64,000 nt of DNA from Stegostoma tigrinum. Taxonomy: Eukaryota. The notes beneath the pieces are model-generated. The model was not told the origin of the DNA and ran no database searches. It saw only the letters and a list, made by a program, of their open reading frames with translations. Shown in pieces: positions 7,790 to 63,165 of the stretch. A program made the translations under genes and the position numbers. Position 1 is the stretch's first letter, and every line of letters begins with the position of its first letter. The stretch covers positions 33,924,620 to 33,988,619 of the forward strand of contig NC_081382.1 in assembly GCF_030684315.1 (NCBI RefSeq), read 5' to 3'.

Positions 7790-7975
7790 GAGAGATAGTA
7801 GGAACTGCTGATGCTGGAGAATCTGAGATAACACGGTGTGAAGCTGGATGAACACAGGCCAAGCAGCAGAGGAGCAGGACAGTTTTAAGAAGGGTCTTGA
7901 CCCGAAACATCAACTTTCCTGCTCCTCTGATGCTGCTTGGCCTACTGTGTTCATCCAGCTTCACACCATGTTATC
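7790..7975. mobile_element. Short fold-back PLE family A element
   Basis: Inverted arms gataacacggtgtgaagctggatgaacac / gtgttcatccagcttcacaccatgttatc; imperfect TSD ccacacacaa (7780-7789) / ccgcacacaa (7976-7985). Confidence 0.8.
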
Positions 7976-8819
7976 CCGCACACAAAAGGCCTTTCAATAA
8001 ATCCACAATTGTGCTCAGAGTTCCAACGTATTTCACAATGTTCCTTTTTGATGTCCTAATTGCAGCATAGCCATTTAGCTTACCCTGACAAATAATCACA
8101 GCAGTGTCTCCTGAAGCAGTACTTTAGCTACATAGCAGTCTATGTCTAAGTCTGCTTAGAACATACTAGGGATTACACCAAATTCCTCATTGATAGTACA
8201 GCACAAAAGTGATATAAAAGTGCTACATATTTTAATTTATACTGCTTTCCTAGCACATGCAATTAAACAGTTGTTGTAGTTAATATTGATCGGAACAGAT
8301 TGTTTCTGGTCAAACAAATTACAGACATGCCCAAAACATCAAAGCATTAACTTGAAAACAATCCATAAACAGGTTCCATTTGGCCAATGTTAACTGCACT
8401 CCCTTCCTACAGAGGGGCAAGTACTGTTTACCAAGTACATAAAGATTTGATAAGGTGCCCATGGGCCTGCAAGTGTTCTGAGATGTTGGAGTTTCAGCAC
8501 CCTTCCACTTATCTACTCAAAATGCTTATTGGCTTCCTATCACTAGTGCAACCAGGAACACCCTACTTTCTAAAGCCAACTAGGAAGAATCCCAGAGCCC
8601 AGTGGCCAAGTCTCACTAATAAGGCAGACTGGCTGATCTATTGACAACCGTGTTGTAGAATTGCTATAGACATTCCTGGTTCAGTAAGTGAATTACTAAA
8701 GCTGCAACATGGTTTTTGTTCGGTCACTGCCTGAATGCTGTCCTTATTTTCCTCCATGTCGGCATGGACTAGGATCAATTCATTCACACAAAATTCTGAA
8801 TGGAACTGAAGACAGTGCA

Positions 8820-8990
8820 ATCACCAATGGGTATCCCCACATTTTACTTTGTGATGGAAGGAAGATTACTGATGAAGCAGATGAGGCTAGCTAGGTATAC
8901 AATACAGTCTGTGGAACTCCTGCAACAATGTCCTGGAGCAGAGATAATTGGCCTCCAACAACCACAAGCTTTGTGCTAGGTATAGGTCCA
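8820..8990 (-). mobile_element. CR1-group LINE (second family) RT fragment
   Basis: Reverse complement of the segment at ~61600-61750 (gatggaaggaagattactgatgaagcag). Confidence 0.6.
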
Positions 8991-9696
8991 AAATCTTCCA
9001 TCACCCAGATCTCTATTCATTGTCAAGGAGGACAGTCAAAACTAAATTAATATATGTGTCACTAAACAACTAAAAACAAGGTTGAATCCTTGCCAGAGGA
9101 GAGCAAATAGAAAAGGGTTGCAGAAGGAGATGCACTGATAAATTTGAAGTGGATGAATGCTTGCCAAAATCCTGAAGCACCAACACTGCTTTCTTAATCA
9201 ATGGGCTCTTTTATAATCAATCCAGATAACGTTATCTGAAATCAACAGGCATCTTGACAGTCTTACAATCTGTCTTCAGGACAAAGGATGCACAAAGTAC
9301 AGTTTCAGGCATGCAACCAACCTTGATGTTCCAGAACAAGTTTAAAGTTAACTTGTGTGCATCCTCAAACATTCTGATTTTACCTGAAAATAATGTTGCA
9401 CAGCTGTCAGCTCATTCCTTGCTAAGCACATGAGTACTCTGCCCCTTAAAGGGCAATGTCACAGATTGTGTGTTCAGTGGTGAAGCAAAGGCACTTGCTG
9501 CTAAATGCTAAGAAGGTTGCTCACAGATCGAAAGATCACTTTTACAGTTAACCATTTCCAGACAGTTTAACCTAGCAGTTTGAACCTCGCCCAAGTCAAG
9601 GAGATGCCTTGGCATGTATGGTAGCAACAATAAGTAGGCAGATTTGAAATATTAACACATAACAAGCCAGGAAGTTAAAACTACTGAGTCTTTCAG

Positions 9697-18696: not shown

Positions 18697-20880
18697 CACA
18701 AAATTGAAGTGGAGCAGAAAGAGGTCATTTGGCCCATCACGTCTGTGTCAGCTCTCCAAACGAGTAATATGACCAGTGCCATTTTTGTGCATTCCCCAAA
18801 ACCCTGCATATTGCTTCCATACAAATAATCATGCAACGTACTTCTGAATGTCTCACTCCACCACATTTTCAGGCAAGGTATTCCAGGCCCAAACCATTCA
18901 CTGAAAATTTTTTTTCTCAAATCACACTTACGTCTTTTGCAAATTACTTTAAATGTGTGTCCCCTCATCCTCTATCCTTTTATCATAAGGTGAAAATAAA
19001 TGGTAACAGTAGGCGGCCATTAGGCCCCTTAAGCCTGCTCTGCCATTCAACAGAACCCTACATATTGCAGTGAGATCACCTCTCATTCTTCTGTATTCCA
19101 ACGAGTTGAGTTGGAACCTGCCTAATCTTTGCTTATAAGGCATTTTTTCCATATCAGGAATCACCCAAGTGAATGTTCTCTGAACTGCCTCCAATTAGAA
19201 AACATATTTTCCTAAGTTAAGAGGTCCAAAACTACTCTCAGTACTTCAGGTGTTGTCTCATCTCACCAGCACCTTGTAGAACTGCATTCAGACTTACTCG
19301 TTCTTACATTCCAACCTTCTTGAAATAGGGGCCAACGTTCTATTAACATTCCTGATTATTTGCTGCACATGTGCTTTTGCTTCTAATGTTCATGCACAAG
19401 TACACCTAACTCAGACATCCTACTCTGACCTCGTCACATTTGCCGGCATTTGGCCCATTTCTCTCCAAACCTGTGCTATTCATATACCATTCAGATACCT
19501 TCTAAATGTTGTAACTGTACCTACCTCCAACACTTCCTCTGCTAGTTCATTCCCTGTACACACCACCATTTATGTGAAAAAGTTACTCCCTCAGGTCCTT
19601 TTTAAATCTTTCCACTCTCACCTTACTGCTATGCCCTCTAGTTTTGGACTCGCCCACTCTAGGAAAAAGACCTTTGCTATTCACCCTATCCACGTCCCTC
19701 ATGATTTCATAAATCTCTGTAAGCTCGCCCCGAACCTCCGACAGTCCAGGAAAATGGCCCCAGCCTATTCCACCTCTCCCTATAATTCAAACCTTCCAGT
19801 CCTGACGACATCCTTCTAAATCTTTGCTGCACCCTTTTAAGTTAACAACATCCCTCCTATGGAAGGGTGACCAGAATTGAACAGTATTCCAAAAAATGTG
19901 TCCTCACCAATGCTGTGTACAGCTGCAACATGGCTTTCCAACTTCTATACTCAATGTTCTGATCAATAAAGGCAAACATGCCAGATGCCTTCTTCACCAC
20001 CAGGTCTAACCACCTTTCAATAACCTATGCACCAGCACTCCTTGGTCTTTGTCCAGCAACACTCCCTAGGACCCTGCTATTAACTCTTCAAGTCCTGTCC
20101 TGATTTGCCTTACCAAAATGCAACGCCTCATTTGTCTAAACTGAACTCCACCTGCCACTCCCCAGCCCAGTCCCAGCTTATCAAAATCCTTTGCACTCTA
20201 AGAAAATCTTCACTGTTCGCTATGCCACATATTTTGGTGTCATCTGCAAACTTACCAACCATACCTCCTATTTTCACATCTAAAATCATTTACATAAATG
20301 ACAAATAGCACTGAACCTAGCACCAGTCCTTTCAGCATACTGCTAGTCACAGGCCTCCAGTCCAAAAAGCAACGCTCTACCACCACCCTCTGTCTCCTAA
20401 CTTCAAACCATTTTGTACCAATTGGCTAACTCCACCTGCATCCCATGTGATCTAACTTCACTAACCACCCTTTTGTGTTGCAGCTTTTGGCAGTTCTTCG
20501 CCACCTAAATGTTACTCTGTTCTTTTGTTCTCCCTTCAAAAGTAAAGGCTTTGCATTTTCCCACATTATACTCCTTTACCAACTTTTCTGCCAACTTACT
20601 TAACCCATTACTGTGCCACTATAAACTAACTGCATTCCTAAAAGGGAACAGTTTCCTCCAAATACCCTGTTTACATCCTTCATAAATTTTAAATCAGCCA
20701 TCAAATCCCCCTCAATCTTTTTCTCTCTAACGAAAAGAGTCCTAACCTCCAGTCTATCTTCATAAATGAAGTTAACTCACCTCTGAAATTATCCTTGTTA
20801 CCCTTTCTGCACCCTATCTAATGCACTGATATCATACTTGAAGTATTGCACCCAAAACTGTACTGCCCCAACACTACTCC
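18697..20880 (-). mobile_element. Cluster of nested CR1 LINE 3' fragments
   Basis: ORFs 18696-18968 and 18949-19194 (EAVQRTFT...SLEYRRMRGDL; RGHTFKV) are CR1 RT C-terminal motifs; a longer copy lies at 19430-20470. Confidence 0.8.
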
Positions 20881-21778
20881 AGCTTTGAGGACTTGGAAAT
20901 ATAAATAAAAATAATATGGAAACGGTCTTAGATGAGTTAATATTTCATTGATAAGTTAGTTTTAAAGATTTGTCTAGAAATTACTTAAGATTATATTCTA
21001 AGTATAATACCATTGCTCAATTACTTTTTGTTTCAGGGAAGATCGAAGAAACTTCATGTTCCTAAAGTAATGGAACAATAGGTGTCATAAAATAAAAGAC
21101 CATACAAGAGCATTGAATGGAGTAGGATGATGGGTTGAACGGTTTTTATGCCTTTTGGATTTTCTTGTTAAATGATCTGCAAGTGTAGTAATCTTAAAAC
21201 CACAACTGTAAAACAAATGGTTGAGTAGGGTCAGCTTTGCACAATCTTATAAGCATTACAGATCTGGCAAGCACAAAGGAAACTAGATGTATCACATCAG
21301 CTGACTTGTGAACGATTCACTGAATTAGACAATCACCTGATGCAAGATTTCTAAAGATTACAAAACATGACTGAGGATTTTTAAAATATTTGATCAAGGG
21401 GTGTGGGTGCTGCTGGAACCCAGATCCCTAATTACCCTCGAGAAGGTTGTAGCGAGCTGCCTTCTTGAAGAACTGTTTTCAATTAAACATTTATGATATT
21501 GTCAGAAAAAGAAAATGTCTCAAGCACATAAGTGTGTTTCTTCAAGCAGAGCTCTGACACTTTTCTGTAGGCTTTCATGTTTGGTCAATATAATCAACTG
21601 CAAAACCACAATCACAACCAGTTGTATCTATTCAGCACCTTTTACAAAGTAGAAAGTTCCAATAGTATTTTAGACAGTGATCAGGGAAAGAGACAAAAGC
21701 TAAGTCAAAGGTTAATATAGATACAAAGATCAAATGATTGACGAAAAATGTACATTTTAAAAGGTCTTAAAGGAGGAT

Positions 21779-22000
21779 CTGAGATAACAAGGTGTAGAGC
21801 TGGATGAACACAATAGGCCAAGCAGCATCAGAGGACCGGGAAAGCTGACGTTTCGGGCCTAGACCCTTCTTCTGAAGAGTCTTTCTGAAGAAGGGTCTAG
21901 GCCCAAAACGTCAGCTTTCCCGCTCCTCCGATGCTGCTTGGCCTGCTGTGTTCATCCAGCTCTTCACCTTGTTATCTCAGATTCTGCAGTTCCTACATTC
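21779..22000. mobile_element. Short fold-back PLE family A element with 14-bp TSD
   Basis: TSD tcttaaaggaggat at 21765-21778 and 22001-22014; near-perfect ~95-bp inverted arms; axis at tcttctgaagagtctttctgaaga. Confidence 0.9.
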
Positions 22001-22126
22001 TCTTAAAGGAGGATATTGATTTCATCATTGAGGTGCAGTTACATCCACAGTGCTATTAGGGAGAGAGTTCTAGGATTTTGACTCAGTGACTTTGAAGGAG
22101 CCATAGCATAGTTTTCAATGACAGGA

Positions 22127-24174: not shown

Positions 24175-24240
24175 AGCTTTTGAGCTCCTAAGATGCTGCT
24201 TGGCCTGCTGTGTTCATCCAGATCCACACTTTGTTATCTC
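24175..24240 (+). mobile_element. 66-bp PLE family A fragment downstream of the hammerhead
   Basis: agcttttgagctcctaagatgctgcttggcctgctgtgttcatccag...gttatctc. Confidence 0.8.
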
Positions 24241-26101
24241 ATAATAGTTTATTTGAGCTCGTGTTAATCATATCAATTTTCAGTCTTATCCTCTACTTTA
24301 ACCAAAATTACTGTCTGCAGTTTCTTCTCATAGCTTAAATGTCCTATTTCCAGGTGTCAAACAGATGGTTTATTGTTTACTTTTCCCTTCAAATGCTTCG
24401 CTTCCTTTTCTTCCTGCAAAATGATAACCAAAACTCCAAACTGTATTCTAGATGGAGCTAAACCTCACTTTGCTAAGTGCAAAATACTTGTTTCATGCCA
24501 CCTGTCTATTTTAGAATTCTTTCGACAGTTGCATTTGAAGTATACAAATCATACATTACAGATTGCACTAAAACTAGCAGATGGCTGATCCTTATATTAC
24601 AAACAGAGATCATCAGCTGCACAAAAGTGCATGAAGTAACATTGACTAGTCAAAAATATATTTCATTCACATGGTAGGAGATCGATTTCTCTTAACACTG
24701 GTTCTGAATAAATAGATGACATTACCTCACATAAATTTAGTGCAGGACATGTCTGCAGGAATTGGATGTTTTGACAGCTTGGATTCAAGCAAATGTGTAA
24801 TCTTGACTGACTCAATATCCTCGTCAGTCAGTCTGTGCCAAGATGAATTTTTTTAACCTAATAAAATATTAAGCATTTATGGAATTACTAGAAAAAAAAT
24901 CTGTCCTGTGCACATCACAGTGTTATCTCCTACAGGGTCCATACATTCTACTGTAGGTGCTCTTCTTTGGTCAATATTACAACAATAACTTTTATCTATA
25001 TGGCACTTTTAACAATGAAGAAAATTCCAAAAGGTACTTCAATCAGACAGTTAAAAGGAAAGAAATGAAGGCTGAGTTAAAGGAGAATATACAAATGATG
25101 ATCAAACGTTTGAACAAAGATATGGATTTTAGACAAGGTCTTTAAAAAAAGTGCATTGAGTTAGAAAGATTTATCTAGCAAATTCCAGAGCATGGAGCAT
25201 AATTGACTAAAGGCACAACTTCAAATCATTGGGCTGAGGAAGCAAGGTTGCAGAGTCAAAGGAATATAAAGGCATTGGATGTGTTTCCAGTGCTGGCGAA
25301 ATTTATACCTTCAGAATTTTCATTGTTGTCAAGTGAAATAAATAGTGCAATGATTCTGACCGACCTCTGAAATGGTCACTTCATAAGTAATTATCAATGG
25401 GTTAACACAACATGATCTTTAGAATTAGAAGTAGATTTTATTGTCACATGTGGACTACCCATTCAGAGTGAAATGATTACTATGTAAAGAATATTAAATA
25501 TTGAAGTGAATAATCTGACATTCACTGATGATCAAGCTTAACATTTAGTTTAAAAATACATGGAAGTATAGTGACAACCAATCAGATCAATGTGCAGAAG
25601 GTACAGTACTAATTTAAAGAGTGTCTTATAATAGGGATGATGACCTACTATCTTTTTATATGTAAATATTATATGCACATGTCTGGACACACAACCAGGT
25701 CTATAATTTATTTATAAAGGTAACATTGACAATACCCAAGCGGCAAATTTGCATTGTAATTTTCCAACTTGACAATACTTCTTCAACAAATTAGGAGTGC
25801 ATCGAATTGTAAAGACCACTATGGTTCAATTGTCAGTTCAAATATAAAATGACACAACAGCTAGTTTATTTGCACTGTCTTCAGTTCTACACTCTATTAC
25901 ACCTTACCAAATATGGCAAAGTCAAATTTTACTTAAATTTGAAATTTATTGTGGTGAAGGTCGATGCTGTACATTATAATTGAAGTGAGACAGAAACAAC
26001 AATTAATAACGTGAACACGTTTACATTTCTAATTGATCTCATTAAGAAAATATAATGATACCAGTAACGTGATGGATAGAAACAGCAAAAAAAATTGAAA
26101 T

Positions 26102-29262: not shown

Positions 29263-29486
29263 CGAGATAACAAGGTGTAGAGGTGGATGAACACAGCACG
29301 CCAAGCAGCATCAGAGGAGCAGGGAGGCTGACGTTTCGGGCCTACACACTTCTTCAGAAAATGAAGGAGGGTCTAGGCCCAAAACGTCAGCCTCCGTGCT
29401 CCTCTGACGCTGCTTGGCCTGCTGTGTTCATCCAGTTCTACACTTTGTTATCTCAGATTCTGCAGCATCTGCAGTTTCTACTATCT
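29263..29486. mobile_element. Short fold-back PLE family A element with 14-bp TSD
   Basis: TSD ctgccataaaacaa at 29249-29262 and 29487-29500; inverted arms; axis at cttcttcagaaaatgaaggag. Confidence 0.9.
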
Positions 29487-32720: not shown

Positions 32721-32734
32721 CAGATTTTAATGAC

Positions 32735-34549: not shown

Positions 34550-34780
34550 AGAGTCACAGAGTTAAACACCATGGAAACAAACCCTTTGGTCCAACTCACC
34601 TATGTTGACTAGGATTCCCAAACTAAACTAGTCCCATTTGTCTCTGTTTGGCTCATATCCCTGTAAACCTTTTCTATCTATGTACCTGTCAAAACATATT
34701 CTAAATGTGGTATCTGTCCCTGCATCTACCACTTCCTCTGACAGTTCATTCCATTCACACACGACCCACTGTGAAAAGGT
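34550..34780 (-). mobile_element. CR1 3'-end fragment
   Basis: FSQWVVCEWNELSEEVVDAGT CR1 C-terminal motif. Confidence 0.8.
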
Positions 34781-35004
34781 TGTACAAGCTTGATTTTCTA
34801 TTTTTAAATAGTATGATTGACACAAATTTACAGATCTCCAATTATTTTTCCTATCTCCATCAGTTACCACATTTAAAAAAGCACCTGTGTAAATATTAGA
34901 GTACATCTCATGAAAAGAACATACAAGACAAACTGTGAAACACTCACATAAAAGTAAAAATCTAAAATTAAAATAAAACAAGCAAATGATGTAACGATCA
35001 ACAG

Positions 35005-35216
35005 AGATAATGGGAACTGCAGATGCTGGAGAATTCCAAGATAATAAAATGTGAGGCTGGATGAACACAGCAGGCCAAGCAGCATCTCAGGAGCACAAAA
35101 GCTGACGTTTCGGGCCTAGACCATCAGATGAAGGGTCTAGGCCCGAAACGTCAGCTTTTGTGCTCCTGAGATGCTGCTTGGCCTGCTGTGTTCATCCAGC
35201 CTCACATTTTATTATC
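35005..35216. mobile_element. Young short fold-back PLE family A element with 13-bp TSD
   Basis: TSD taacgatcaacag (34992-35004) / taacaatcaacag (35217-35229); ~83-bp apparently perfect inverted arms; axis ccatcagatgaaggg. Confidence 0.92.
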
Positions 35217-39712: not shown

Positions 39713-41925
39713 TGACGTTTCGGGCCGAGACCCTTCATCAGAGAGGGGGATGGGGTGAGGGTTCTGGAATAAATAGGGAGAGAGGGAGAGGCGGACCGAA
39801 CATGGAGAGAAAAGAAGATAGGTGGAGAGGAGAGTATAGGTGGGGACGTAGGGAGGGGATAGGTCAGTCCAGGGAAGACGGACAGGTCAAGGAGGTGGGA
39901 TGAGGTTAGTAGGTAGGAGATGGAGGTGCGGCTTGGGGTGGGAGAGAGGAAGAACAGGTTAGGGAGGCAGAGACAGGCTGGACTGGTTTTGGGATGCAGT
40001 GGGTGGAGGGGAAGAGCTGGGCTGGTTGTGTGGTGCAGTGGGGGGAGGGGACGAACTGGGCTGGTTTTGGGATGCGGTGGGGGAAGGGGAGATTTTGAAG
40101 CTGGTGAAGTCCACATTGATACCATTGGGCCGCAGGGTTCCCAAGCGGAATATGAGTTGCTGTTCCTGCAACCTTCGGGTGGCATCATTGTGGCACTGCA
40201 GGAGGCCCATGATGGACATGTCATCTAAAGAATGGGAGGGGGAGTGGAAATGGTTTGCGACTGGGAGGTGCAGTTGTTTATTACGAACTGAGCGGAGGTG
40301 TTCTGCAAAGCGGTCCCCAAGCCTCCGCTTGGTTTCCCCAATGTAGAGGAAGCCACACCGGGTACAATGGATACAGTATACCACATTGGCAGATGTGCAG
40401 GTGAACCTCTGCTTAATATGGAAAGTCATCTTGGAGCCTGGGATAGGGGTGAGAGAGGAGGTGCGGGGGCAAGTGTAGCATTTCCTGCGGTTGCAGGGGA
40501 AGGTGCCGGGTGTGGTGGGGTTGGAGAGCAGTGTGGAGCGAACAAGGGAGTCACGGAGAGAGTGGTCTCTCCAGAAAGCAGACAGGGGTGGGGATGGAAA
40601 AATGTCTTGGGTGGTGGGGTCGGATTGTAGATGGCGGAAGTGTCGGAGAATGATGCGTTGTATCCGGAGGTTGGTAGGGTGGTGTGTGAGAACGAGGGAG
40701 ATCCTCTTTGGGCGGTTGTGGCGGGGGCGGGGTGTGAGGGATGTGTTGCGGGAAATGCAGGAGACGTGGTCAAGGGCGTTCTCGACCACTGTGGGGGGAA
40801 AAGTTGTGTCCTTGAGGAACTTGGACATCTGGGATGTGTGGGAGTGGAATGCCTCATTGTGGGAGCAGATCAGATGCAGCGGAGGCGGAGGAATTGGGAA
40901 TAGGGGATGGAATTTTTGCAGGAGGGTGGGTGGGAGGAGGTATATTTTAGGTAGCTGTGAGAGTCGGTGGGCTTGAAATAAACAACCGGTTGGTGAAGTG
41001 GATGAACTGTTCGAGCTCCTCTGGGGAGCAAGAGGCGGTGCCGATACAGTCATCAATGTAACGGAGGAAGAGGTGGGGTTTGGGGCCTGTGTATGTGTGG
41101 AAGAGGGACTGTTCCACATAACCTACAAACAGGCAGGCATAGCTGGGGCCCATGCAGGCACCCATGGCCACCCCCTTTGTCTGTAGGAAGTGGGAGGAAT
41201 TGAAGGAGAAGTTGTTGAGGGTGAGGACGGGTTTGGCTAGGTGGATGAGGGTGTCGGTGGAGGGGGACTGGTCGGGCCTGCAGGACAGGAAGAAGCGGAG
41301 TGCCTTGAGGCCATCTGCATGCGGAATACAGGTGTTTAGGGACTGGACGTCCATGGTGAAAATGAGGTGTTGGGGGCCAGGGAATTGGAAGTTCTGGAGG
41401 AGGTGGAGGGTGTGGGTGCTGTCACGGACATAGGTAGGGAGTTCCTGGACCAAAGGGGAGGAAATGGAGTCCAGATAGATGGAGATGAGTTCGTTGGGGC
41501 AGGAACAGGCTGAGACAATGGGTCGACCAGGGCAGGCAGGTTTGTGGATTTTGGGAAGGAGATAGAAGCGGGCCGTGCGGGGTTGGGGAACAGAGGTTGG
41601 AGGCTGTGGGTGGGAGGTCCCCTGAGGTGATGAGATCATGAATGGTGTTGGAGATGATGGTTTGGGGCTCAGGGGTGGGGACATGATCGAGGGGGCGGTA
41701 GGAGGAGGTGTCGGAGAGTTGGCGTTTGGCCTCGGCGATGTAGAGGTCAGTGTGCCATACTACCATTGCGCCACCCTTGTCTGCGGGTTTGATGGTGAGG
41801 TTGGGGTTGGAGCGGAGGCCTGCCCGTTCTGCAGGGGAGAGGTTGGAGTGGGTGAGGGGGGTGGAGAGGTTGAGGCGGTTCATGTCTCGACGGCAGTTGG
41901 AGACGAAGAGGTCGAGGGAGGGTGA
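39713..41925 (-). mobile_element. PLE family A, long arm of a large fold-back (RT + GIY-YIG, frameshifted)
   Basis: ORFs give IKPADKGGA, FYLLPKIHK..PGRPIVS, TMDVQSL, QTKGVAMG, LRYIDD (PLE RT) and VVYCIHC..LYIGET (EN). Confidence 0.95.
39714..39741 (-). ncRNA. Minimal hammerhead core
   Basis: - strand CTGATGA-agggtctcggccc-GAAA-cg-TC. Confidence 0.7.
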
Positions 41926-43367
41926 CCTCTCCAGCACATCCCTCACCCTCCTGGACCTCTCAGTCTCCATCTCAGGCAACCAGCTTGTAACTGATGTCCA
42001 TTTCAAGCCCACCGATTCCCACAGCTACCTAGAATACACCTCCTCCCACCCACCCTCCTGCAAAAATTCCATCCCCTATTCCCAATTCCTCCGCCTCTGC
42101 CACATCTGCTCCCACGATGAGGCATTGCACTCCCGCACATCCCAGATGTCCAAGTTCCTCAAGGACGCAACTTTCTCCCCACAGTGGTCGAGAACGCCCT
42201 TGACCGCGTCTCCTGCATTTCCCGCAACACATCCCTCACACCCCGCCCCCGCCACAACCGCCCAAAGAGGATCCCCCTCGTTCTCACACACCACCCCACC
42301 AACCTCCGGATACAACGCATCACCCTCCGACACTTTCGCCATCTACAATCCGACCCCACCACCCAAGACATTTTTCCATCCCCACCCTTGTCTGCTTTCC
42401 GGAGAGACCACTCTCCGTGACTCCCTTGTTCACTCCACACTGCCCTCCAACCCCACCGCACCCGGCACCTTCCCCTGCAACCGCAGGAAATGCTACACTT
42501 GCCCCCGCATCTCCTCCCTCACCCCTATCCCAGGCTCCAAGATGACTTTCCATATTAAGCAGAGGTTCACCTGCACATCTGCCAATGTGGTATACTGTAT
42601 CCATTGTACCCGGTGTGGCTTCCTCTACATTGGGGAAACCAAGCGGAGGCTTGGGGACTGCTTTGCAGAACACCTCTGCTCGGTTCGCGATAAACAACTG
42701 CACCTCCCAGTCGCGAACTATTTCCACTCCCCCTCCCATTCTTTAGATGACATGTCCATCATGGGCCTCCTGCAGTGCCACAATGATGCCACCCGAAGGT
42801 TGCAGGAACAGCAACTCATATTCCGCTTGGGAACCCTGCAGCCCAATGGTATCAATGTGGACTTCACCAGCTTCAAAATCTCCCCTTCCCCCACCGCATC
42901 CCAAAATCAGCCCAGTTCGTCCCCTCCCCCCACTGCACCACACAACCAGCCCAGCTCTTCCCCTCCACCCACTGCATCCCAAAACCAGTCCAACCTGTCT
43001 CTGCTTGCCTAACCTGTTCTTCCTCTCACCCATCCCTTCCTCCCACCCCAAGCCGCACCTCCATCTACCTACTAACCTCATCCCACCTCCTTGATCTGTC
43101 CGTCTTCCCTGGACTGACCTATCCCCTCCCTACGTCCCCACCTATACTCTCCTCTCCACCTATCTTCTTTTCTCTCCATGTTCGGTCCGCCTCTCCCTCT
43201 CTCCCTATTTATTCCAGAACCCTCACCCCATCCCCCTCTCTGATGAAGGGTCTCGGCCCGAAACGTCAGCTTTTGTGCTGCTGAGATGCTGCTGGGCCTG
43301 CTGTGTTCATCCAGCCTCACATTTTATTATTTTGGATTCTCCAGCATCTGCAGTTCCCATTATCTCT
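41926..43367 (+). mobile_element. PLE family A, inverted second arm (RT thumb + GIY-YIG + complete 3' end)
   Basis: LDLSVS...FKPTDSHSYLEYTSSHP...IPYSQFLRL; 42000-43268 is the near-exact reverse complement of 39713-40978. Confidence 0.95.
43240..43267 (+). ncRNA. Minimal hammerhead core, sense to the KYAT1 pre-mRNA
   Basis: CTGATGA-agggtctcggccc-GAAA-cg-TC. Confidence 0.72.
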
Positions 43368-44069
43368 GATACAAAATATTAAAGATATTCAGGATTCCAG
43401 TTAGCATCTAAAGATAACAGACAAATAGTGATATTTTTCCTGTGTTGCCTTCAGTCTGATAACAGCTATAAAGTCTGATTGAGTTATTTGAGGTCATTCA
43501 TGTAACAAAGTCATTTGTCAATCCAGTCAGTGGAGAAGAAGAAAGAAACCATTGTTGATTGTGAAGATTGATGACACTGAGAATCATGATTTCATCAGAG
43601 GAGAATTTAGTGATACAAGACTCCATTTTGTTGGATGGAAAGTAAAGTTCTAAAAAAATTATTCAGGTTATTGCAGTGGTTGAGATGGTTGACAAACTTA
43701 GCTGTATAATTTCTATCCACAGGTACTTTATTTGAAATTGGGTCATTGTTGCATGTCATAGTAAACGGCAGAAGTGTTGAAATAACTAAGTACAAGGTAT
43801 TTTTGCATAAGGTTAAAATGATATGTTAATAACAGCTTGTATTTATATTGTGTCTTTAAAGTAGAAAAACTGTTTGACGTGTGCGCTATTCCCTATTGGA
43901 GGCCAAAAATCAGCTGGCTGCATTCATTCCTCTTTTCAGGAAATAACGCTTCTTGATATTCAATATCAACTAATGATATAATACATAGGGTTCATTCTCT
44001 TCAGCTTTTTGTTGCATTATACCTTCATTTTTCATTCACTAATGTTCTGTCTGTTTATTACTTGTGTGT

Positions 44070-46961: not shown

Positions 46962-47146
46962 AATAACAGTGTGGAGCTGGAGGAACACAACAGGCCAGGC
47001 AGCATCAAAGGAACAGGAAAGTTGATGTTTCGGGTTGGGACCCTTCTTCAAGTGTTGCCTCTGATGTTGTCTGGCCTGCTGTGTTCCTCCAGCCCCACAC
47101 TATATGTTATCTCTGACTCCAGCATCGGCAGTTCTTACTATCTCTG
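46962..47146. mobile_element. Short fold-back PLE family A-related element with 14-bp TSD
   Basis: TSD agcaaggcagttgt (46948-46961) / agcaaggtagttgt (47147-47160); inverted arms. Confidence 0.85.
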
Positions 47147-50274: not shown

Positions 50275-51312
50275 TAGCGAGTTTTGAGACGATTTGTAGC
50301 TCAGGTTGAGGTTTTGGATGTGAGTTTGCTCGCTGAGCTGGAAGGTTAGTTTTCAGAAGTTTCGTCACCATTCTAGGTAACATCATCAGTGAGCCTCCGA
50401 AGCGCTGGTGTTATGTCCCACTTTCTATTTATCTGGTTAGGTTTCCTTGGGTTGGTGATGTCATTTCCTGTGTTGGTGATGTCATTTCCTGTTCTTTTTC
50501 TCAGGGGATGGTAGATTGGTTCCACATCAGTGTGTTTGTTGATGGAATTCCGGCTGGAATGCCATGCTTCTAGGAATTCTCGTGCGTGTCTCTGTTTGGC
50601 TTGTCCTAGGATGGATGTGTTGTCCCAATCAAAGTGGTGTCCTTCTTCATCTGTATGTAAGGATACGAGTGATAGTGGGTCATGTCGTTTTGTGGCTAGT
50701 TGATGTTCATGTATCCTGGTGGCTAGCTTTCTGCCAGTTTGTCCAATGTAGTGTTTGTCACAGTTCTTGCAAGGTATTTTGTAGATGATGAACTTAATGA
50801 ACTAATGAACTTAAAAGACCCTATACAGACAACAAACAAAACGAACGTCATCTACAAAATACCTTGCAAGAACTGTGACAAACACTACATTGGACAAACT
50901 GGCAGAAAGCTAGCCACCAGGATACATGAACATCAACTAGCCACAAAACGACATGACCCACTATCACTCGTATCCTTACATGCAGATGAGGAAGGACACC
51001 ACTTTGATTGGGACAACACATCCATCCTAGGACAAGCCAAACAGAGACACGCACGAGAATTCCTAGAAGCATGGCATTCCAGCCGGAACTCCATCAACAA
51101 ACACATTGATTTGGAGCCCATCTACCATCCCCTGAGAAAAAGAACAGGAAATGACACCACCAACGCAGGAAATGACATCACCAACCCAAGGAAACCTAAC
51201 CAGATAAATAGAAAGCAGGACATAACACCAGCGCTTCGTCGGAGGCTCACTGATGATGTTACCTAGAATGGTGACGAAACGTCTGAAAACTAACCTTCCA
51301 GCTCAGCGAGCA
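50275..51312. mobile_element. Fold-back PLE family C (GIY-YIG on both strands) with 15-bp TSD
   Basis: TSD aactgacaaattgac at 50260-50274 and 51313-51327; + arm ORF TNVIYKIPCKNCDKHYIGQTGRKLATRIHEH; - arm 50275-50790 is its reverse complement. Confidence 0.95.
51250..51283 (+). ncRNA. Minimal hammerhead core (PLE family C)
   Basis: tca-CTGATGA-t-gttacc-tagaat-ggtgac-GAAA-cg-TC-tga: 6-bp stem II, 3-bp stem I. The antisense-arm copy (50356-50389) has GAAACTTC. Confidence 0.8.
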
Positions 51313-51483: not shown

Positions 51484-51685
51484 TAAAAGCAAAATACTTT
51501 GGATGCTGGAGATTTGAAATACAAACAGATAATGCTGGAGAAACTTAACAGGTTTAGCAAATTCTGTGGAGAGAGAAACAGCTTTGAAATTTTGAGTCCA
51601 ATTAGACTTAAAACTTTAACTGAGTTTCTGTCTGCACAGATGCTGCTAGACTTGTTAAGTTTCTCCAGCACTTCCTATTTTTATT
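51484..51685. mobile_element. Old short fold-back PLE family B element
   Basis: gctggagaaacttaacagg / cttgttaagtttctccagc arms; TSD aactaatgttaa (51472-51483) / aactgatattaa (51686-51697). Confidence 0.75.
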
Positions 51686-53718: not shown

Positions 53719-54128
53719 GTAAGAATGAAGAGTGTTTGTGCAGTTATAGGCTGTGTTATGACTACTGCCAATAATTAAGGTTTAGTGTTGTTGATTCAAG
53801 TCCATATCTTGGAGTACACCTGCTACATGTAACTTTTCACTTTCAGGATACCTAGGAACAAAATATCACGTGCGTTTTTCTCTTCATTTGATCAATGTCC
53901 GAAGTAGATACATTTGAAGAGTAGCTCACAGAAGTGTTGAATCGGAAAGCTTGATTCATTTGTTGGTAATGTTTGTTCAATGACATAGTCTTTAAACATA
54001 AAAACATGTGGAATTGCACATAGACAATACTTAGTGCTGATTTTGATTGAGCAAGATTAAAGGTTGATGGATAACTTGACCAAGGAAGGCAGGAGAGGAA
54101 AATAGAGCAGGGAGGTGGAGAGATTAAA

Positions 54129-54285
54129 TAAAAACTGAAAGATCTGCGGATGCTGTAAATCAGGAACAAAAACAAAGTTGCTGGAAAAGCTCAGCAGGTC
54201 TGGTAGCATCTGTGAAAGAAAAAAAACAGAGTTAACAGTTTAGGCCTGGTGACCCTTCCCCAGAACTGAATGCAGGAACTGTGTA
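54129..54285 (-). mobile_element. PLE family B 3' end with degenerate hammerhead
   Basis: Flanked by ggagagattaa on both sides; matches 32620-32720 in reverse. Confidence 0.7.
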
Positions 54286-54375
54286 GGAGGAGAGATTAAG
54301 TTGTTCCCTAAGAAACATGGCAAATTTTACCTGATGCTGTTGAGAAGGATCCGGTTGCAAAAATGCAATTGCGAT

Positions 54376-55171
54376 TAAAGTTTTGGCGAAGATCTGTAGC
54401 TCGGGTTGTTGGTGAGGTTGTTGACTTGCTCGCTGAGCTGGCTTGTTTTTGTTCGGATGTCTCATCACCATGCTAGGCAAAATCATCAGTGGAACCTCCA
54501 ATGACGCTATGTTATTCTACTCCACTTGGAATTTATACTGTCTGATCCGTCATGGTGAGTAGTGTCATTTCCAGTTTTGATCTGTATGCGTTTGTATATG
54601 GGGTCCAATTCTATATGTTTGTTGATTGCTTTACAGGTGGAGAACTATGCTTCTAGAAATTCTCAAGTGTGTCTATGTTTGGCTTGTGCTACAATGGTTA
54701 CTTTGTCCCAGTTAAACTGATGGCCTTCACTCTCTGTGTGTACCGATAATAAGGAGAGTTTGTTGTGCTGTTTTGCTGCCAGCTGATGTTCATGTATTCT
54801 GATGGCTAGTTTCCTTCCTGTACACAGTAGGAGGACACAGTACCCCTGAAAACACTGGCCACACTGCCCTACATCAAGAACATACCAGAAGTGACAAGAT
54901 TCTTAAGACCACTAGGAATCATTGTAGCACACAAGCCCACAGCCACTCTACGACAAGCACTCACAAGGATTAAAGACCCCATTCCCACCAACATACAGAA
55001 CGAGCGTGGTTTACAAAATACCATACAAAGACTGCCACAAACATTACGTCGGACAGACAGAAAGGAAGAATAACATTGCTTCATCGGAGGCTCCACTGAT
55101 GATGTAGCCTAGCGTGATGACAAAACTTCTGAACAAAAACAAGCCTGCTCGGTGAGCAAGTCAACAACCTC
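54376..55171. mobile_element. Fold-back PLE family C-related element with 13-bp TSD
   Basis: TSD atgcaattgcgat (54363-54375) / atgcaattgtgat (55172-55184); + arm LPYIKNIPEVTRFLRPLGIIVAHKP; inversion junction at ~54821; degenerate hammerheads in both arms. Confidence 0.88.
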
Positions 55172-55939: not shown

Positions 55940-58900
55940 TGTGGTAATTACAGTGAGGTCAGCTAGATCTCATAGAATATCAGGTCCTTGATTGGGGCTG
56001 TTAACCTGGTTCCAATCACAAAGCCCTGGTTGACCGATACAAACAGGAGTGTCAGAGGTTTTGTTGACTCAGAGCTGGCTTTGAGGAAGCTGGATTAGTG
56101 TATGCATATGTAAATAAGGGGTGACGAGGTGACTTGATAGGGGTCTCTGTGGAGTTCATTCAGTGAAGAAAAAAATGCACTCCTGAAGGATTTTGCTCAC
56201 GGAAGTCATCTTTGAGTTTGGGGTAAGCATTTCTGGCATCATGCTGTTATTTGGGAAGCCGTTGTAGTTACTGAGGCTATGAGGACTCGACAGCAAAAAA
56301 GGCCAACTAGGCCTGAACTCAGTAAGATAACGCATAAGCTGGTATCCAGGTGAGTGCACACCCTGGAAAGGTCACCTACATCTGGCTTTGAACCTTTTAA
56401 ATTGCTTACCAACATCCTGCAGAAAAAAAATCAAAATAAACATCTGGTTATATGATCACCCTGTTCATAAGGAGAGTTTGTTGTGCCGTTTTGCTGCCAG
56501 CTGGTGTTCATGTATTCTGGTGGCTAGTTTCATTCCTGTACACAGTAGGAGGACACACTACCCTCTAAAACACTGCATGGCTGCACCAGTGGTTGCAGAA
56601 CCACTCTTTCACAAAATTTACGCTGGACTCCAAGCCTTATGTTTATGTAATAAACCAGCTAAACAGGGAACTTTTACAGATTAAGGGTACAACTTCGGTT
56701 CTGGTCTCATATGAGAAGCAGCTAGTTCAGTTACCACTGATTGCAGTGAAAGGTTCGAGCCCAAGCCTGAAAGGGAGAAACTGGTTGAGAAACATTCACC
56801 TTGATTGGCTTAACATTTTTCAATTATAAAATGGCTACCTGAATGAAGTCTTAATTAAATACCCAGAGGTTTTTCAGGAAGGTCTAAGGACTATCAAAGG
56901 AACCAAGGCCATCTTGCATGTTGACCTGGAAGCAATTCCATGACTCTGCAAGGTCCACCCAGTGCCAATTACATTATGGGCAACAGTAGATTCAGAAATT
57001 AGGAGGCTGGAAAGCAAAGGAATCATCAAACCAATACAGTTTTCAGAATGAGCTGCATCGATCATACCAATTGTGAAGCCCAGTGGCTTGGTTCACCTTT
57101 GTGGGGATTTTAAACACACAGTAACCAGCTTCTTGCAGCTGGATAAATACCCAATCTCTTGTGTAGAGGGCTTACACGTAAAGCTGGTGGGAGTCTGTCC
57201 TTCACGAAGCTAGCCATGAGCCCTATGTGCCTGCGGTTAGCTGAGGATTCATAGAAGTTGGCTGTAATTAATATCCATAAGAATTTGTCGCAGTAGACGA
57301 CACTGCCATTTGGGGTATTGTTAGCCAGAGGAATTTCTCAGTGGACAATGGAGAACATTTTACAAGGTCTGCCCCAGATTGCAACTTATCTGGATGATGT
57401 ACTAATAACAGGGAAGGCTAATAAAGAGCAGTTCAAGAACATGGGCAAAGTCCTTAAACGTTCCAGGTGGATGTACGTCTTAGAGAGAAAAATGTGTTTT
57501 CCGAGCACCCCAAATAACCTACTTGGGCTGCAGAGTTGACAAGGCTGGGTTACCCTTATTGGAAGATAAAGTGATGGTGATGAAAGGTGCCCCAGCTCCC
57601 ATGTCTGTACTGGACTTAGGTCTTTCCTTGGATTGATGAATTACTACAGAAAGTTCATATGTAACCTAGCTTCCAATCTGGCACCCATATATCTGCTATT
57701 GAAAAAGAGTCAACCTTCGAAAAGAGTCACACAGCCAAGATACGGCCTATCGGGAAGTGAAGAAGCACTTGTCATCACCTAAGGTGTTGGTATTCAAGTG
57801 AGATCTGGTGCTGACATATTATGCCTCCCCTGTATGATATTGGGGTATTCTCGGTTCATGGACGGCCCAATGGAGAGCATCCGCAATAAGGTATGCTTCT
57901 CAGATTCTGGCTGATGCAGAACACAGATGTGCTCACAGAACGAAGGTTTGGCAGTCATCTTTGGCATGAGAAAGTTTCACCAATACCCCTTTATGGAAGT
58001 AAATTTCTAATAATAATAGACCATGAAGCCCCGCTAGGGCAACTCAAAGAGGACAAGGCTGTGCCACCCATAGCTTCAGGTCAGATTCTCATTCTGTGGC
58101 TTCTCATTCTGAGTGCTTATAAATACAAGTTGGAACAACATCCAGGATGCCAAGTAGGAAATGTGGATGCCTTGAACTGCGTCCCACCAGCAGATACACC
58201 ACCAGAAAGTTATTTAAACTTTCTGGACACTCTCTTTTGGTTACTGCTGACAATATCAGACTCTGGATGCAAAAAGAGCTGATCTGACAAACTAAAACAG
58301 CTGGTGCTGATGGTGGAGAGAGGGGGATCAAAAGGGCCATTACAACCAGAATGAAACCGTTCTGGACCTGGCGAGACCAGATCACTGTGGAGGATGACAT
58401 TTTATTGTGGGGACCAAGAACCAAGCAAAGATCAATACCAGATATTGGCTGAACTCCACCGTGGTCATCCAAGAGTGTCAAAACTGAAGATGTCGGAAAG
58501 AAGTCATGTCTGCTGGCCAGTATTGGATGTAGACATAGTTGTGTTGATGGGCCAGTGCCGGGAGTACCAACAAGGACAAAGATTACTGCCAGCAGCTTCC
58601 CCGCATTCATGGGAATTGCTGGATAAACTTTGGACTTGCTTACACATTGACTGTGCCAACCTTTTCACGGGCACAATGTTCTTATTCATCTTGGACCCTC
58701 ATTCAGAGTGGTTGGATGTGCATAGAGCTAATTTGTCAAACACAGGGAAAATGATAGATTAGCTGTGATCATTTTTTGCCATACACCAGCTTCCGGAAGT
58801 GTTGGTCACAGATAATGGGCTGTCATTTACAGGAATTTGAGTATTTCCTCAAGTCAAATGGCAGTCAGCATAGAAGGACAGGTCCATACTATCCATTGTC

Positions 58901-59659
58901 CAATGGTTTGTCTCCAAACTTTGAAGGCAGGCTTAAAGAAACAGCCTACACTATCACTCAATACCAAACTGTATCTGGGGAAGGGGAGGAAAGGGAGTGG
59001 GAGTGACTGAAACGGCATCAGGAACATCAGTGCTGGACATAGGACTCAAAGCAAAAGAGACAGTTTTCTTTAGGGGATGAAATTTGGCATCAAACCCAGA
59101 GAAATGGCCCTGCATGGGTAAGCAAAACATACCCTGCTCTTCAGAACAGTCAGAAAGGCTGTAGGAGCCCATGGGTTTTCTCCTTCCATCTAGCATCAAA
59201 GAAACCTCAGAGTCTGAGATGATCATGGCAGATATTGCAGCCGCGAGACCTTTACCGTCTGAAAAAGAGGATAAGTCTCTTCCGAAACACTCCAGGACCA
59301 AGAGGCGGGTGACAGTCAGGTATATGCAGCCTGAATCTGAAGCTGAGTTAGAGGACCTGGACCCAGTACAAAAATGCCCCAAGAGAGGCTATAAGATAAA
59401 GAACAAGCCTATGTCCCAGGACTTAAACGAGGAGGGATGTAGTGATTATTACGAGGTCAGCCAAATGCACCTCATTGAATACGAGTTCCCTGATTGGGGC
59501 TGTTAACCAGGGAGCTCTGGCTGACAGGCATTAACAGTCATGTCAGACACCTGTTCACTCTTGAGAGCTGGCTCTGAGGAAGTCAAACAAATGTCAAGTA
59601 TTATGCACAAGTAAAGGGTGACTTGGTGACAGGATAGGGGTCACTGTGGAATTATTTCA
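55940..59659 (+). mobile_element. Decayed Ty3/Gypsy LTR retrotransposon (LTRs 55940-56162 and 59438-59659)
   Basis: TG...CA LTRs, 5-bp TSD CTTAC (55935-55939, 59660-59664), PPT gaggaggga; PR (GRNWL), RT (LCGDFK, YLDDVLITG), RNase H, IN (LHRGHP...WP, LHID) in Gypsy order; gag largely deleted; many stops. Confidence 0.93.
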
Positions 59660-59747
59660 CTTACCACCCCATTTTATTATGTTTAGTATTTTTAAGTTAA
59701 GTAAATAGCTGGTTTTTTGAAGGAAAACCCAAATCATATAAACTCAG

Positions 59748-60529
59748 ATAATAAAATGTGAGGCTGGATGAACACAGCAGGCCAAGCAGCATCTCAGGAG
59801 CACAAAAGCTGACGTTTCGGGCCTAGACCCTTCATCAGAGAGGGGGATGGGGAGAGGGAACTGGAATAAATAGGGAGAGAGGAGGAGGCGGACCGAAGAT
59901 GGAGAGTAGAGAAGATAGGTGGAGAGAGTGTAGGTGGGGAGGTAGGGAGGGGATAGGTCAGTCCAGGGAAGACGGACAGGTCAAGGAGGTGGGATGAGGT
60001 TAGTAGGTAGCTGGGGGTGCGGCTTGGGGTGGGAGGAAGGGATGGGTGAGAGGAAGAACCGGTTAGGGAGGCAGAGACAGGTTGGACTGGTTTTGGGATG
60101 CAGTGGGTGGGGGGGAAGAGCTGGGCTGGTTGTGTGGTGCAGTGGGGGGAGGGGACGAACTGGGCTGGTTTAGGGATGCAGTAGGGGAAGGGGAGATTTT
60201 GAAACTGGTGAAGTCCACATTGATACCATATGGCTGCAGGGTTCCCAGGTGGAATATGAGTTGCTGTTCCTGCAACCTTAGGGTGGCATCATTGTGGCAG
60301 TGCAGGAGGCCCATGATGGACATGTCATCAAGAGAATGGGAGGGGGAGTGGAAATGTTTTGCGACTGGGAGGTGCAGTTGTTTGTTGCGAACTGAGCGGA
60401 GGTGTTCTGCAAAGCGGTCCCCAAGCCTCCGCTTTTCTGCAAAGCGGTCCCCAAGCCTCCGCTTCTGTGTTCATCCAGCCTCACATTTTATTATCTTGGA
60501 ATTCTCCAGCATCTGCAGTTCCCATTATC
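59748..60529 (-). mobile_element. PLE family A, - strand 3' part with an inverted 65-bp terminal piece, 14-bp TSD
   Basis: TSD tcatataaactcag at 59734-59747 and 60530-60543; hammerhead core at 59811-59838 (-); 30-bp tandem duplication at 60405-60464. Confidence 0.92.
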
Positions 60530-61074
60530 TCATATAAACTCAGTATTAGTGTCTTGTTGGCAGCTGGGTTTTAGTGCAGCAGTTAGTAACAAAACCTTTA
60601 TCATAGCACCACCTACAGGTATTATAAGAACATTTGAATGAATTTTTTTTCACATCCTTCCTCTGATTTTGATTTTTCCTGAAGCAAATGAGCAATGAAA
60701 TACTGCATTTTCTGCAAAACATTGCTGATGTGTTGATACTTGATAGAAAATTGTAAGTTCTGCAGTGTGCATCACATTAGTTACCCAGAATAGAATATGA
60801 AACTCAGGACAACTCAGTGCCTGATTCAAAAATAGAAAGGCATCACAACAACTTCTGACACAGTTGCCTATCTTTATCACCTGAATGTAAAAAGGCAGTT
60901 GCTGCTATACAACGACAGAAATTGTAAGAAAGAGAGAAAGGTGAAGAAATTAATGCTATCCAGTTATCTGTCTGGAGAGAACTAGGTTTATTGCTTTGCT
61001 CATTATACGGAGATGATATGGCCTTAGGCACATGGTGATACAAGTTTAGCAACACTATAAATAACAGCAGACCT

Positions 61075-63165
61075 CATGACATAGATGGGTGAAAGGAGCA
61101 GACACTGGCAGAAGCAGATTTAATGGGGATAAATATAAAGTGATAAACTTTGAGAGAAACAACATCCAGAGGCAGTATAAATGGTACTATGTTGAGGGAA
61201 GAGGATTGCGAGTACAGTTACAACACTGGCATCCATTCAACAATGTGGAAAGTCACCAAGTTATGTCCTGTACACAAAAAGCAGGACAAACCCAACCCAG
61301 CCAATTACTGCCCCATTAGTCTACTGTTGATCATCAGTAAAGTGTGTCAGCAATAGTGCTATCATGCAGCACCTGCTCAGCAATAACCTGCTCAGTGATG
61401 CCCAGTTTGGGTTCTGCCAGGGCCACTCAGCTGCTGACCTCTTTACAGCCCTGGTTCAAACATGGACAAAAGAGAGAAATTCCAGAGGTGAGATGAGAGT
61501 GGCAGACCCCAACATCAAAGTTGCTTTCAACTGAAAGTGGCATCAAGGAACTCTAGAAAAACTGTAATCAATGAGTATCAGAAGGCAGTCCTCAGTAGTT
61601 GAACTAATACCTGGTACATAGGAAGATGGTTGTGGTTGTTGTAGGTAGGCCATCTCAGCCCCAGGGCATCTCCCTGGACAGGGTAGTGTCCTAGACCCAA
61701 TCATTTCCAGCTGCTTCATCAATGACCTTCCGTCCATCATAAGGTCAGAAGTGGGGATGTTCACCAATGATTGTACAGTGTTCAGCACCATTCATGACTC
61801 ATCCAGTTCTTAAGCAGTCCATGTTCAAATGTAATACGATCTCGGCAAAATCCAGCTTGGGCTGACAAGTGGCAAGCAACATTTGTGCCACACATGCCAG
61901 GCAATGACCATCTCCAATGAGAGACAATTTAATTATCGCCCCTTGACATTCAATAGTATTACCACCACTGAATCCCCCACTATCAGCATTCTTGGGGTTT
62001 ACGACTGACTAGAAACTGGACTTATCACATAAGCACAGTGGCTACAAGAATATCTCATCACCTCACTCCGCAAAGTCTGTCGACCATTGACAAAGCACAA
62101 GTCAGGCATGTGGTGGAATACACCACTTGCCTGGATAGTTGCAGCTCCAGCAACATTGAAGAAGTTTGGCACAATCCAGAACAAAGCAGCCTGCTTGATT
62201 GGCATCACATCTACAAGCTTCCTCTCCCTCCATCACTGACACTAAGCCGCAGTGTGTACTATGTACAAGATGTACTGCAGAAATTCACCAAAGATCCTAG
62301 ACAGCACTTTCCAAACTCATGACCACTTTGTCCTTTGAAAGTGCAGTAGATATGTGGGAATACTACCATCTGCAAGTTCCCCTCCAAGACACACACCATT
62401 CTGACTTGTGTATATATATCACTTGTTCCTTCACTGTCGCTGCATCTAAGTCCTGGAATTCCCTCCATAAGGGCATTATGGGTCAACCTACAGCATGTGG
62501 ATTGCAGTAGTTCAAGAAGCCAGCACCTCGCTACCTTTTCAAAAGCAACAAGGGACGGACAATGAAATGCTGGCCAGCCAGTGATGTCCATGTCCCATGA
62601 GTAAATATTAAAAGAAAGAGTAGAGGGATCAAATGGTGTGTATACATAAATCTTTGAAGGTGGCAGCTGATGAGGTGATTAATAAATATGACGTGGACTG
62701 GACAAAGTCAGAAGCCACACGACACCAGTTATAATGCTGCAGGTTTATTAGAAATCACAAGCTTTTTCAGTGCTGCTCTTTTGTCAGGAAGGAGCAGTAC
62801 TCCGAAAGCTTGTGATTTCAAATAAACCTATTGGACTATTACCTTGTGTTGTGTGACTTCTGGCATTGTGATTGATAATGCTTATGGTATTTGGCTATGT
62901 AAGTTGGACAGTAAATACAAAAACAAAATAGTTATGCCAACCTTTCAGATAGTGCTTCAGGTGGAATAGTGTGTACGGTTCTCTATAATGGTCTTCAAGA
63001 AGAATATCAAGGTCTTGGAAAGAAAACTGGGGACATTACCAGGATGATGCCAATGATGAGAGATTTTAGTTATGTAGAGAGATTGGAGAAAGTTGGTAAG
63101 TTCTTAGAGCAGATGAGATTAAGGGAAGACTTAATATTGATATTTAAGAGTTTTAATTTACAGTA
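61075..63165 (+). mobile_element. CR1 fragment interrupted by a second CR1-group LINE (61200-62612) and a fold-back element
   Basis: Inner ORF MWKVTKLCPVHKKQDKPNPANYCPISLL; the outer CR1 resumes at ~62615 and ends YVERLEKVG..RLREDLI. Confidence 0.8.
62686..62867. mobile_element. Short fold-back element, PLE family D
   Basis: Arms aggtttattagaaatcacaagcttt / aaagcttgtgatttcaaataaacct; centre tgtcag-gaaggagcagtactccGAAAgct is a hammerhead remnant; TSD gtgattaataa (62675-62685) / gtgattgataa (62868-62878). Confidence 0.75.

Follow-up and report, generated by a model that had tools for sequence, protein, structure and literature searches.

We describe here a 64,000-nucleotide stretch of the Stegostoma tigrinum genome (NCBI RefSeq assembly GCF_030684315.1, contig NC_081382.1, positions 33,924,620 to 33,988,619 of the forward strand; hereafter the window) and the Penelope-like elements (PLEs) of four families, A to D, that have inserted into it. 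An earlier note on this DNA had reported at least ten insertions bounded by target-site duplications (TSDs), together with one large element, and comparison of the window with itself reproduced this picture: outward-pointing PLE ends form local inverted repeats at 11 of the 11 named places, and ten of these have TSDs of 10-15 bp, four of them 14 bp long, just as had been claimed. The place without a TSD is the large copy at 39713-43367. When the arms were aligned, all ten TSD-bounded insertions, from families A-D, were seen to join one arm that carries a short tail (tailed, or long) to one that does not (tail-less, or short), with an identity between partner arms of 73-97%. These insertions, and two single-armed family A copies, are as follows.

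7790..7975: family A, older subfamily, head-to-head, tailed arm left; TSD 7780-7789 / 7976-7985, 10 bp, 1 mismatch
21779..22000: family A, tailed arm right, its tail shortened by an internal deletion; TSD 21765-21778 / 22001-22014, 14 bp, exact
29263..29486: family A, tailed arm right; TSD 29249-29262 / 29487-29500, 14 bp, exact
35005..35216: young family A, tailed arm left; TSD 34992-35004 / 35217-35229, 13 bp, 1 mismatch
39713..43367: large two-armed family A copy, no TSD
about 39713-41925, minus strand: left arm of the large copy, with broken reverse transcriptase (RT) and GIY-YIG frames, cut inside the hammerhead
right arm of the large copy, plus strand: Cys linker, GIY-YIG and tail
46962..47146: family A, older subfamily, tailed arm right; TSD 14 bp, 1 mismatch
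50275..51312: family B (Penelope/Poseidon type), tailed arm left; TSD 15 bp, exact
51484..51685: old family C, tailed arm left; TSD 12 bp, 2 mismatches
54376..55171: family B-related, tailed arm left and longer; TSD 13 bp, 1 mismatch
59748..60529: family A, tail-less arm of about 690 nt, tailed arm of about 70 nt; TSD 14 bp, exact
62686..62867: old family D, longer arm left; TSD 11 bp, 1 mismatch
4184..5281, plus strand: single-armed family A copy, tailed; TSD not found
24175..24241, plus strand: single tail-less family A arm beginning at the hammerhead cut; TSD not found

The TSD at 51484 is the weakest of the ten, having been missed by the automatic scan, found by eye and then checked. The insertion at 50275 retains GIY-YIG fragments and a hammerhead in each of its two arms, and the one at 54376 is about 69% identical to it. 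For the 35005 site, two studies supply contigs of a related organism in which position 34991 adjoins 35217 without interruption and one TSD copy is present; the empty-site check that the earlier note had proposed thus came out in its favor here.

Taken as elements, these PLEs fall within known clades and are unexceptional, and their architecture is already known. Family A matches RVT_1 (E 8e-5) and GIY-YIG (E 0.057) and family B matches GIY-YIG (E 5e-4), all below the Pfam cut-offs and in broken frames, with the domain order of endonuclease-bearing (EN+) PLEs, in which the RT precedes a C-terminal GIY-YIG endonuclease. In family A the GIY-YIG motif is preceded by a C-x4-C-x2-C linker; a CX2-5CxxC linker in this position has been described as a mark of Neptune or Nematis PLEs (PMC8557442), and family A would on this ground probably belong to the Neptune clade, although Nematis bears the same linker. 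Family B reads through upstream of GIY-YIG in one sampled locus (L081) with no Cys linker, which suggests the Penelope/Poseidon clade. Only the ends of the other two families were studied: that of family C resembles the family A end by eye, and family D offers a hammerhead-like motif only. The claim that all four families bear hammerheads stood for the fetched loci, in which core-motif matches (core boxes and stem II by pattern, overlapping loci kept) number 104 for A, 8 for B, 9 for C and 1 for D; it did not stand for the window copies at 51484 and 62686, which retain merely part of the ribozyme. An Rfam search reported no hammerhead, only sub-threshold matches to miRNA-like hairpins, and a PDB sequence search with the family B endonuclease fragment returned nothing relevant. 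Run-through or tandem copies (L064, L078, L081, L113 and L145) and 90 inverted pairs display the pseudo-long terminal repeats (pLTRs) of PLEs, and the characteristic one-end tail of 30-40 nt is present in families A, B and C.

To place these insertions in a genomic context, we sampled 50 stretches of 10 kb on a fixed grid (500 kb) and 70 further loci around the first-listed matches of a motif common to both arm types; about the last 21 of the 100 listed motif matches lie outside the fetched loci. A further 30 loci resembling the whole 35005 palindrome were excluded from the pairing, TSD and end counts and kept in the comparison of variants, where they make up 30 of 81 pairs and none of the 15 long pairs. 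The family A arm motif has at least 73,133 exact copies in the genome; all genome-wide counts refer to arms with exact motifs and retain duplicated regions.

Among the 90 head-to-head pairs sampled, 66 combine a long with a short arm, two are long+long, none is short+short, and 22 have an incomplete end. A TSD of at least 11 bp flanks 53 pairs of this architecture-blind sample, and 52 of them are long+short, the remaining one having an incomplete end; this tabulation of family A copies had been suggested by the earlier note, and its outcome supports the rule. The lengths of these 53 TSDs are 11 (1), 13 (6), 14 (15), 15 (14), 16 (11), 17 (3) and 18 bp (3), and such a TSD is found in 52 of the 66 long+short pairs vs 3 of 330 controls with mismatched flanks. 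Neither long+long pair has a TSD; in the tandem L078, the outer ends are one long and one short, and a TSD bounds them. The insertions measure 106 to 3534 nt, 35 of 52 being 260 nt or shorter, and the long+short rule holds in families A, B and C, in keeping with the claim that it extends across diverged families. The two-armed form is not universal, since the fixed-grid sample holds 10 TSD-bounded single arms next to 17 TSD-bounded pairs; single arms with TSDs include both end types, nine of them tail-less. With regard to reach toward the element's 5' end, the tail-less arm extends further than its tailed partner by more than 15 nt in 14 of the 52 pairs (by up to 1.4 kb) and the tailed arm in nine, whereas 29 are symmetric within 15 nt.

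The ends of the arms can be read against five features of the family A leader.

43206..43213, plus strand: TATA-like motif 30 nt upstream of the probable start; putative promoter
43236, plus strand: probable capped start of transcription; the main arm 5' end genome-wide, most often with an extra G before it
43238..43269, plus strand: minimal hammerhead motif, predicted cut between 43267 and 43268
43325..43336, plus strand: short-arm priming window around the ttatct motif
43360..43377, plus strand: long-arm (tail) priming window; run-through copies continue past it to the start of the open reading frame (ORF)

A spacing of about 30 nt upstream of the start site is the canonical position of a TATA box. 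In 44 young TSD-bounded pairs (43 from the loci and one from the window), short arms end between -7 and +1 of the last base of ttatct and long arms between +28 and +45, which separates the two start regions by about 37 nt and puts the offset between arm ends at 31-45 nt (n=44). The constant stop at ttatct proposed earlier is therefore right as to the neighborhood, the ends lying around the motif, and wrong as to its precision, the window spanning about 8 nt rather than a single base. Nor is the end of the long arm a true terminus, although the tailed and tail-less arms themselves were seen in every case: in L064, L078, L113 and L145 the element continues beyond the tail into the beginning of the ORF, whose ATG lies about 74 nt after the motif, and both priming sites must thus be internal. 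What had been described as two fixed priming positions, one of them terminal, are two internal windows. Microhomology with the target averages 1.7 and 1.9 nt at the two sites vs 0.74 and 0.70 in simulations, and TSD length is uncorrelated with it (rho 0.00, n=44), from which it follows that the paired bases lie within the stagger. Two further candidates were rejected. An AAC motif at the target site, seen in the 30 best matches to the 35005 copy, reflected query bias (232 of 73,133 genome-wide), and the proportion of arms scored as tailed (50,018 of 73,133) could not be taken as an excess of long arms, since many short arms stop before the last base of the pattern.

At the other extremity, arm 5' ends cluster at the bases equivalent to 43236 and 43268. 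Genome-wide patterns that require three non-template bases before the arm end matched 7434 times at 43236 and 1954 times at the position two bases upstream of it, the latter mostly a single microhomology class. Once junctions of the palindrome type are set aside, 43236 is preceded by G in 2398 and by A or T in 880 of 3278 cases, vs 27% G expected. Such an extra G at L1 and SVA insertions has been attributed to the RNA cap (PMC3287187, PMC11702581), and we infer that the 43236-equivalent base is probably the capped start of a sense RNA. In L031 and L149 the tail-less arm reaches this start with an extra G of its own while the tailed partner stops early. Around the predicted hammerhead cut, family A 5' ends number 133, 371, 2402, 308 and 378 by position, and perfect palindromes have their axis at the cut in 709 and at the start site in 1035 cases. 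Non-palindromic junctions account for 26 of the first 100 ends listed at the cut, or about 625 by extrapolation, which exceeds the total at each neighboring position; by hand count a G precedes six of these 26, a chance level that fits an uncapped end. The peak may be an indirect in vivo sign that the minimal PLE hammerhead cleaves.

Whether the two arms of an insertion derive from one RNA or two can be approached through their variants and lengths. The two arms of an insertion have 49% of their non-CpG variants in common, vs 8% for arms across insertions (81 pairs), and for the 15 long pairs the observed sharing was reached in none of 1000 re-pairings. Length class also agrees between arms: in 15 pairs both run past the start site, in 34 neither does, and in 3 only one does (Fisher p 2e-10). 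Variant sharing and length class together favor a single RNA.

On the strength of the anatomy, the long+short pairing, the size of the TSDs, the distributions of ends, the extra G, the shared variants and the one empty site, all of which are observed, we consider it very likely that these copies arise by synthesis from two primers on sense RNA. That this amounts to full twin target-primed reverse transcription on one sense RNA molecule we regard as probable, and the still more specific proposal, that a pair of RT active sites is loaded onto a single capped sense RNA at a spacing of 37 nt, each being primed by one end of a break staggered by 14-15 nt, as evenly balanced. Such a protein, with its GIY-YIG and RT activities and plausibly acting as a dimer, would nick the two target strands some 14-15 nt apart, in line with the stagger of about 14 nt suggested earlier, to leave two 3' ends; the pairing rule and the TSDs likewise support the earlier idea of one priming event per nicked strand. 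Base pairing over 1-3 positions would anchor each 3' end to the sense RNA in one of two windows of the 5' leader, which lie about 37 nt apart, past the hammerhead and before the ORF start. Both complementary DNAs (cDNAs) would then grow toward the RNA 5' end, most likely along a single RNA molecule on which the trailing RT would displace the cDNA ahead of it, until extension halts at the capped start, at the ribozyme-cut end or at random. The cDNA ends could be joined bluntly, via a copied cap base or by microhomology, and gaps filled, to give a product of the order TSD, short arm, long arm, TSD. Extension of just one end would leave a single-armed TSD-bounded copy, and arms of 0.3-2.3 kb would reflect priming at the downstream pLTR of a read-through RNA. 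In this scheme the nick geometry, the dimer, the use of one RNA, strand displacement and the activities of promoter and ribozyme are inferred rather than observed. In vitro, the Anolis element PAc has been reported to nick and extend both strands from two internal sites, with a dimer predicted (PMC11167929). Should the scheme be true, two first-strand cDNAs would replace the conventional second-strand step, the tail would simply reflect how far apart the two sites lie, and the genome would preserve in vivo traces, in the thousands, of the capped start as well as of the RNA end cut by the hammerhead.

Several observations weigh against this scheme. According to the same in vitro account, the start site of PAc does not differ between top strand and bottom strand and ribozyme cleavage is not needed (PMC11167929). 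The 29 of 52 near-symmetric pairs are also expected from fold-back or from central deletion, and the empty-site comparison covers one site (35005). At the predicted cut, 62 of the first 100 listed ends are self-palindromic and 12 belong to another microhomology class (hand count), and the excess in family B is about two-fold (44 vs 21, 21 and 29). Shuffled sequences fold as stably as the hairpin predicted around the priming sites (z -0.43). In 3 of the 52 pairs one arm ends near the start or cut and its partner far upstream, and these need a second pLTR or a second RNA, beyond one short RNA. Shared variants, finally, could also reflect one dominant source at a time or gene conversion between the arms.

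As an alternative, twin priming on two RNAs from the same source locus, one for each subunit of an asymmetric dimer that fixes the choice of site, would account for the three mixed-class pairs and for further cases without TSDs (L085, L144 and L031) in which the short arm halts near the start and the long arm continues; it would make strand displacement unnecessary, and variant sharing would be expected of it if few sources are active at a time. We nevertheless judge it unlikely, given that many mixed pairs of leader and read-through arms are expected under it, yet 3 of 52 are seen, and that near-equal random ends (-598/-594 and -707/-705) suggest one broken template. Less probable again is self-priming, as proposed in PMC3846280, in which a lone cDNA forms a hairpin and serves as its own template, while endonuclease trimming at one end confines the tail to one side (PMC8557442). 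It predicts shared variants and symmetric arms, as in the 29 of 52 pairs within 15 nt, as well as short overlaps at many axes, and the PAc endonuclease does cleave its own pLTR sequence (PMC11167929). A hairpin copy, however, cannot outreach the 5' end of its template, and the tail-less arm is the longer one in 14 of 52 pairs, a finding that also speaks against the "fold-back" label of the earlier note; post-insertion deletion could mimic some of these cases, but several tail-less arms end intact at the 5' hot spot opposite a short partner. Moreover, the window insertion at 59748 is not derivable from a folded tail-primed cDNA, the nine TSD-bounded tail-less single arms require priming at the short site, and the extra G and cut-site peak point to a capped sense RNA and not to the antisense template on which the published model depends for arms in head-to-head order. 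Fold-back may still explain some symmetric copies.

For the cut-site peak alone, a doubtful but arguable explanation is that the RT stalls at the base of the hairpin on uncleaved RNA and the ends join via a self-complementary 4-mer. The cut does coincide with such a 4-mer and with the 3' strand of the predicted stem, the effect in family B is weak, and no RNA reads ending at the cut are reported for Anolis in PMC11167929. Yet two other self-complementary 4-mers yield 50 and 23 palindromes vs the 709 at the cut, a stall two bases downstream should peak there, where only 378 ends lie, and the non-palindromic junctions at the cut, by extrapolation, outnumber the full count at each neighboring base and show G at the chance level. 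Assembly error, or post-insertion recombination between separate copies, might be suspected behind palindromes of any kind, since long inverted repeats are hard to assemble and same-species short-read contigs break at these repeats. We give this explanation almost no credence in view of arms that differ from each other (73-97% identity), matched TSDs in 52 of 66 pairs vs 3 of 330, the strict long+short rule, and a site at which a relative lacks the insertion and has just one TSD copy.

Some further copies are recorded here in their own right. In L064:6740-8440, L078:4970-6185 and L081:835-1585 the arms are tandem repeats with a unit of 300-440 nt (pLTR plus ORF start), and the outer ends are still long+short and TSD-bounded; these insertions are retrozyme-like, and circular or tandem templates could be reflected in them. 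Tail-only insertions of 25-33 nt with TSDs of 14-15 bp, ending near the short priming site, occur at L035:1484-1519 and L066:8025-8057. Short tailed arms (7 vs 1, and the tail-only L035 and L066) might betray a collision with the leading cDNA, but they are confounded by detection limits and suggestive only. At L128:3350-3370 a family A insertion lies in a target resembling a family D end, a probable nesting of PLE families. Within the window, a family C single arm with an apparent 11-bp TSD by eye lies at 54128-54288, and another family C copy, its tailed end facing left, at 7428-7546. At 32262-32734 a tail-less family A arm stands head-to-head with a family C tailed end, with no TSD found, which might have arisen by nesting and deletion or in a two-family event, and at 39612-39713 the left arm of the large family A copy, cut within the hammerhead, runs into a family C end of the same orientation. 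The hybrid A+C insertions at 32262 and 39646 were dropped as proof of two RNAs, no TSD having been found. Outside the PLEs, the window holds a decayed remnant of a long terminal repeat (LTR) retroelement at 55941-59659 (direct repeat 55941-56162 / 59442-59659, with an integrase zinc-binding match at 58355-58759) and diverged dispersed-repeat copies at 19430-20461, 22187-23248 and 34615-34781 (68-72% identity), probably fragments of long interspersed elements (LINEs).

Two RT start sites and extension of both strands were published in vitro in 2024 (PMC11167929), and two start sites as such are not new. What appears to be new is that 5' ends fall at the probable capped start and the predicted cut, and that the arms of an insertion share variants and length class; our literature search, which left most subscription and older Penelope papers outside, found no PLE twin priming, cap-derived G or cut-site ends. 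The available accounts describe the completion of PLE insertion, the inverted copies, the one-sided tail and the weak ribozyme as open questions (PMC11167929, PMC8557442). A genome with at least 73,133 exact copies of one arm motif suffices for reading a mechanism from the junctions, and the expectation that these elements would form a natural data set for PLE integration has been borne out by the junction statistics, whose value is that they make that mechanism testable. The junctions speak against the published antisense self-priming as a general rule, and both the stagger and the coupling of strand to site become directly testable in the existing in vitro system.

Among known systems, the Poseidon element PAc of Anolis carolinensis is similar in having two internal RT start sites that bound the tail, an upstream hammerhead, a predicted dimer, a sequence that runs on past the tail, and both strands nicked and extended (PMC11167929). 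Its start sites lie 111-118 nt inside the ORF, whereas here they lie in the leader before the ATG; the report describes no strand-to-site coupling and no trace of ribozyme-cut ends, and its main text makes no mention of TSDs, stagger or palindromes (PMC11167929). The hammerheads of metazoan PLEs and retrozymes share the minimal core, a short helix I and the lack of helix III, and for Schistosoma earlier work had described pairs of such motifs at distances of 100-700 bp, one on each strand; evidence of in vivo cleavage is stated there to be absent for the published minimal hammerheads (PMC4209133; bioRxiv 10.64898/2026.07.22.740005), whereas family A ends peak here at the predicted cut. Inverted terminal copies, TSDs, partial tandems and a tail of 30-40 nt, often at one end only, are likewise described for Adineta Pen2a/Pen2 and Drosophila virilis Penelope, as optional features of few copies that were explained by self-priming, with TSDs of 8-10 bp in Adineta (PMC3846280, PMC2377424, PMC8557442). 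The present genome differs from these in its tens of thousands of arms, a near-obligate long+short pairing, TSDs of 14-16 bp and mapped 5' ends.

In LINE-1 (L1) twin priming, the site at which the second primer engages is internal and varies, and the two cDNAs represent neighboring parts of the element. That process, with its 5' inversion, resembles the one proposed here in that both target ends prime one RNA, the TSD is discrete, the two cDNAs are end-joined and an extra G derives from the cap (PMC11702581). Unlike in L1, the second primer would here engage only about 37 nt from the first, and both cDNAs would span the same sequence, so that their joining yields a palindrome.

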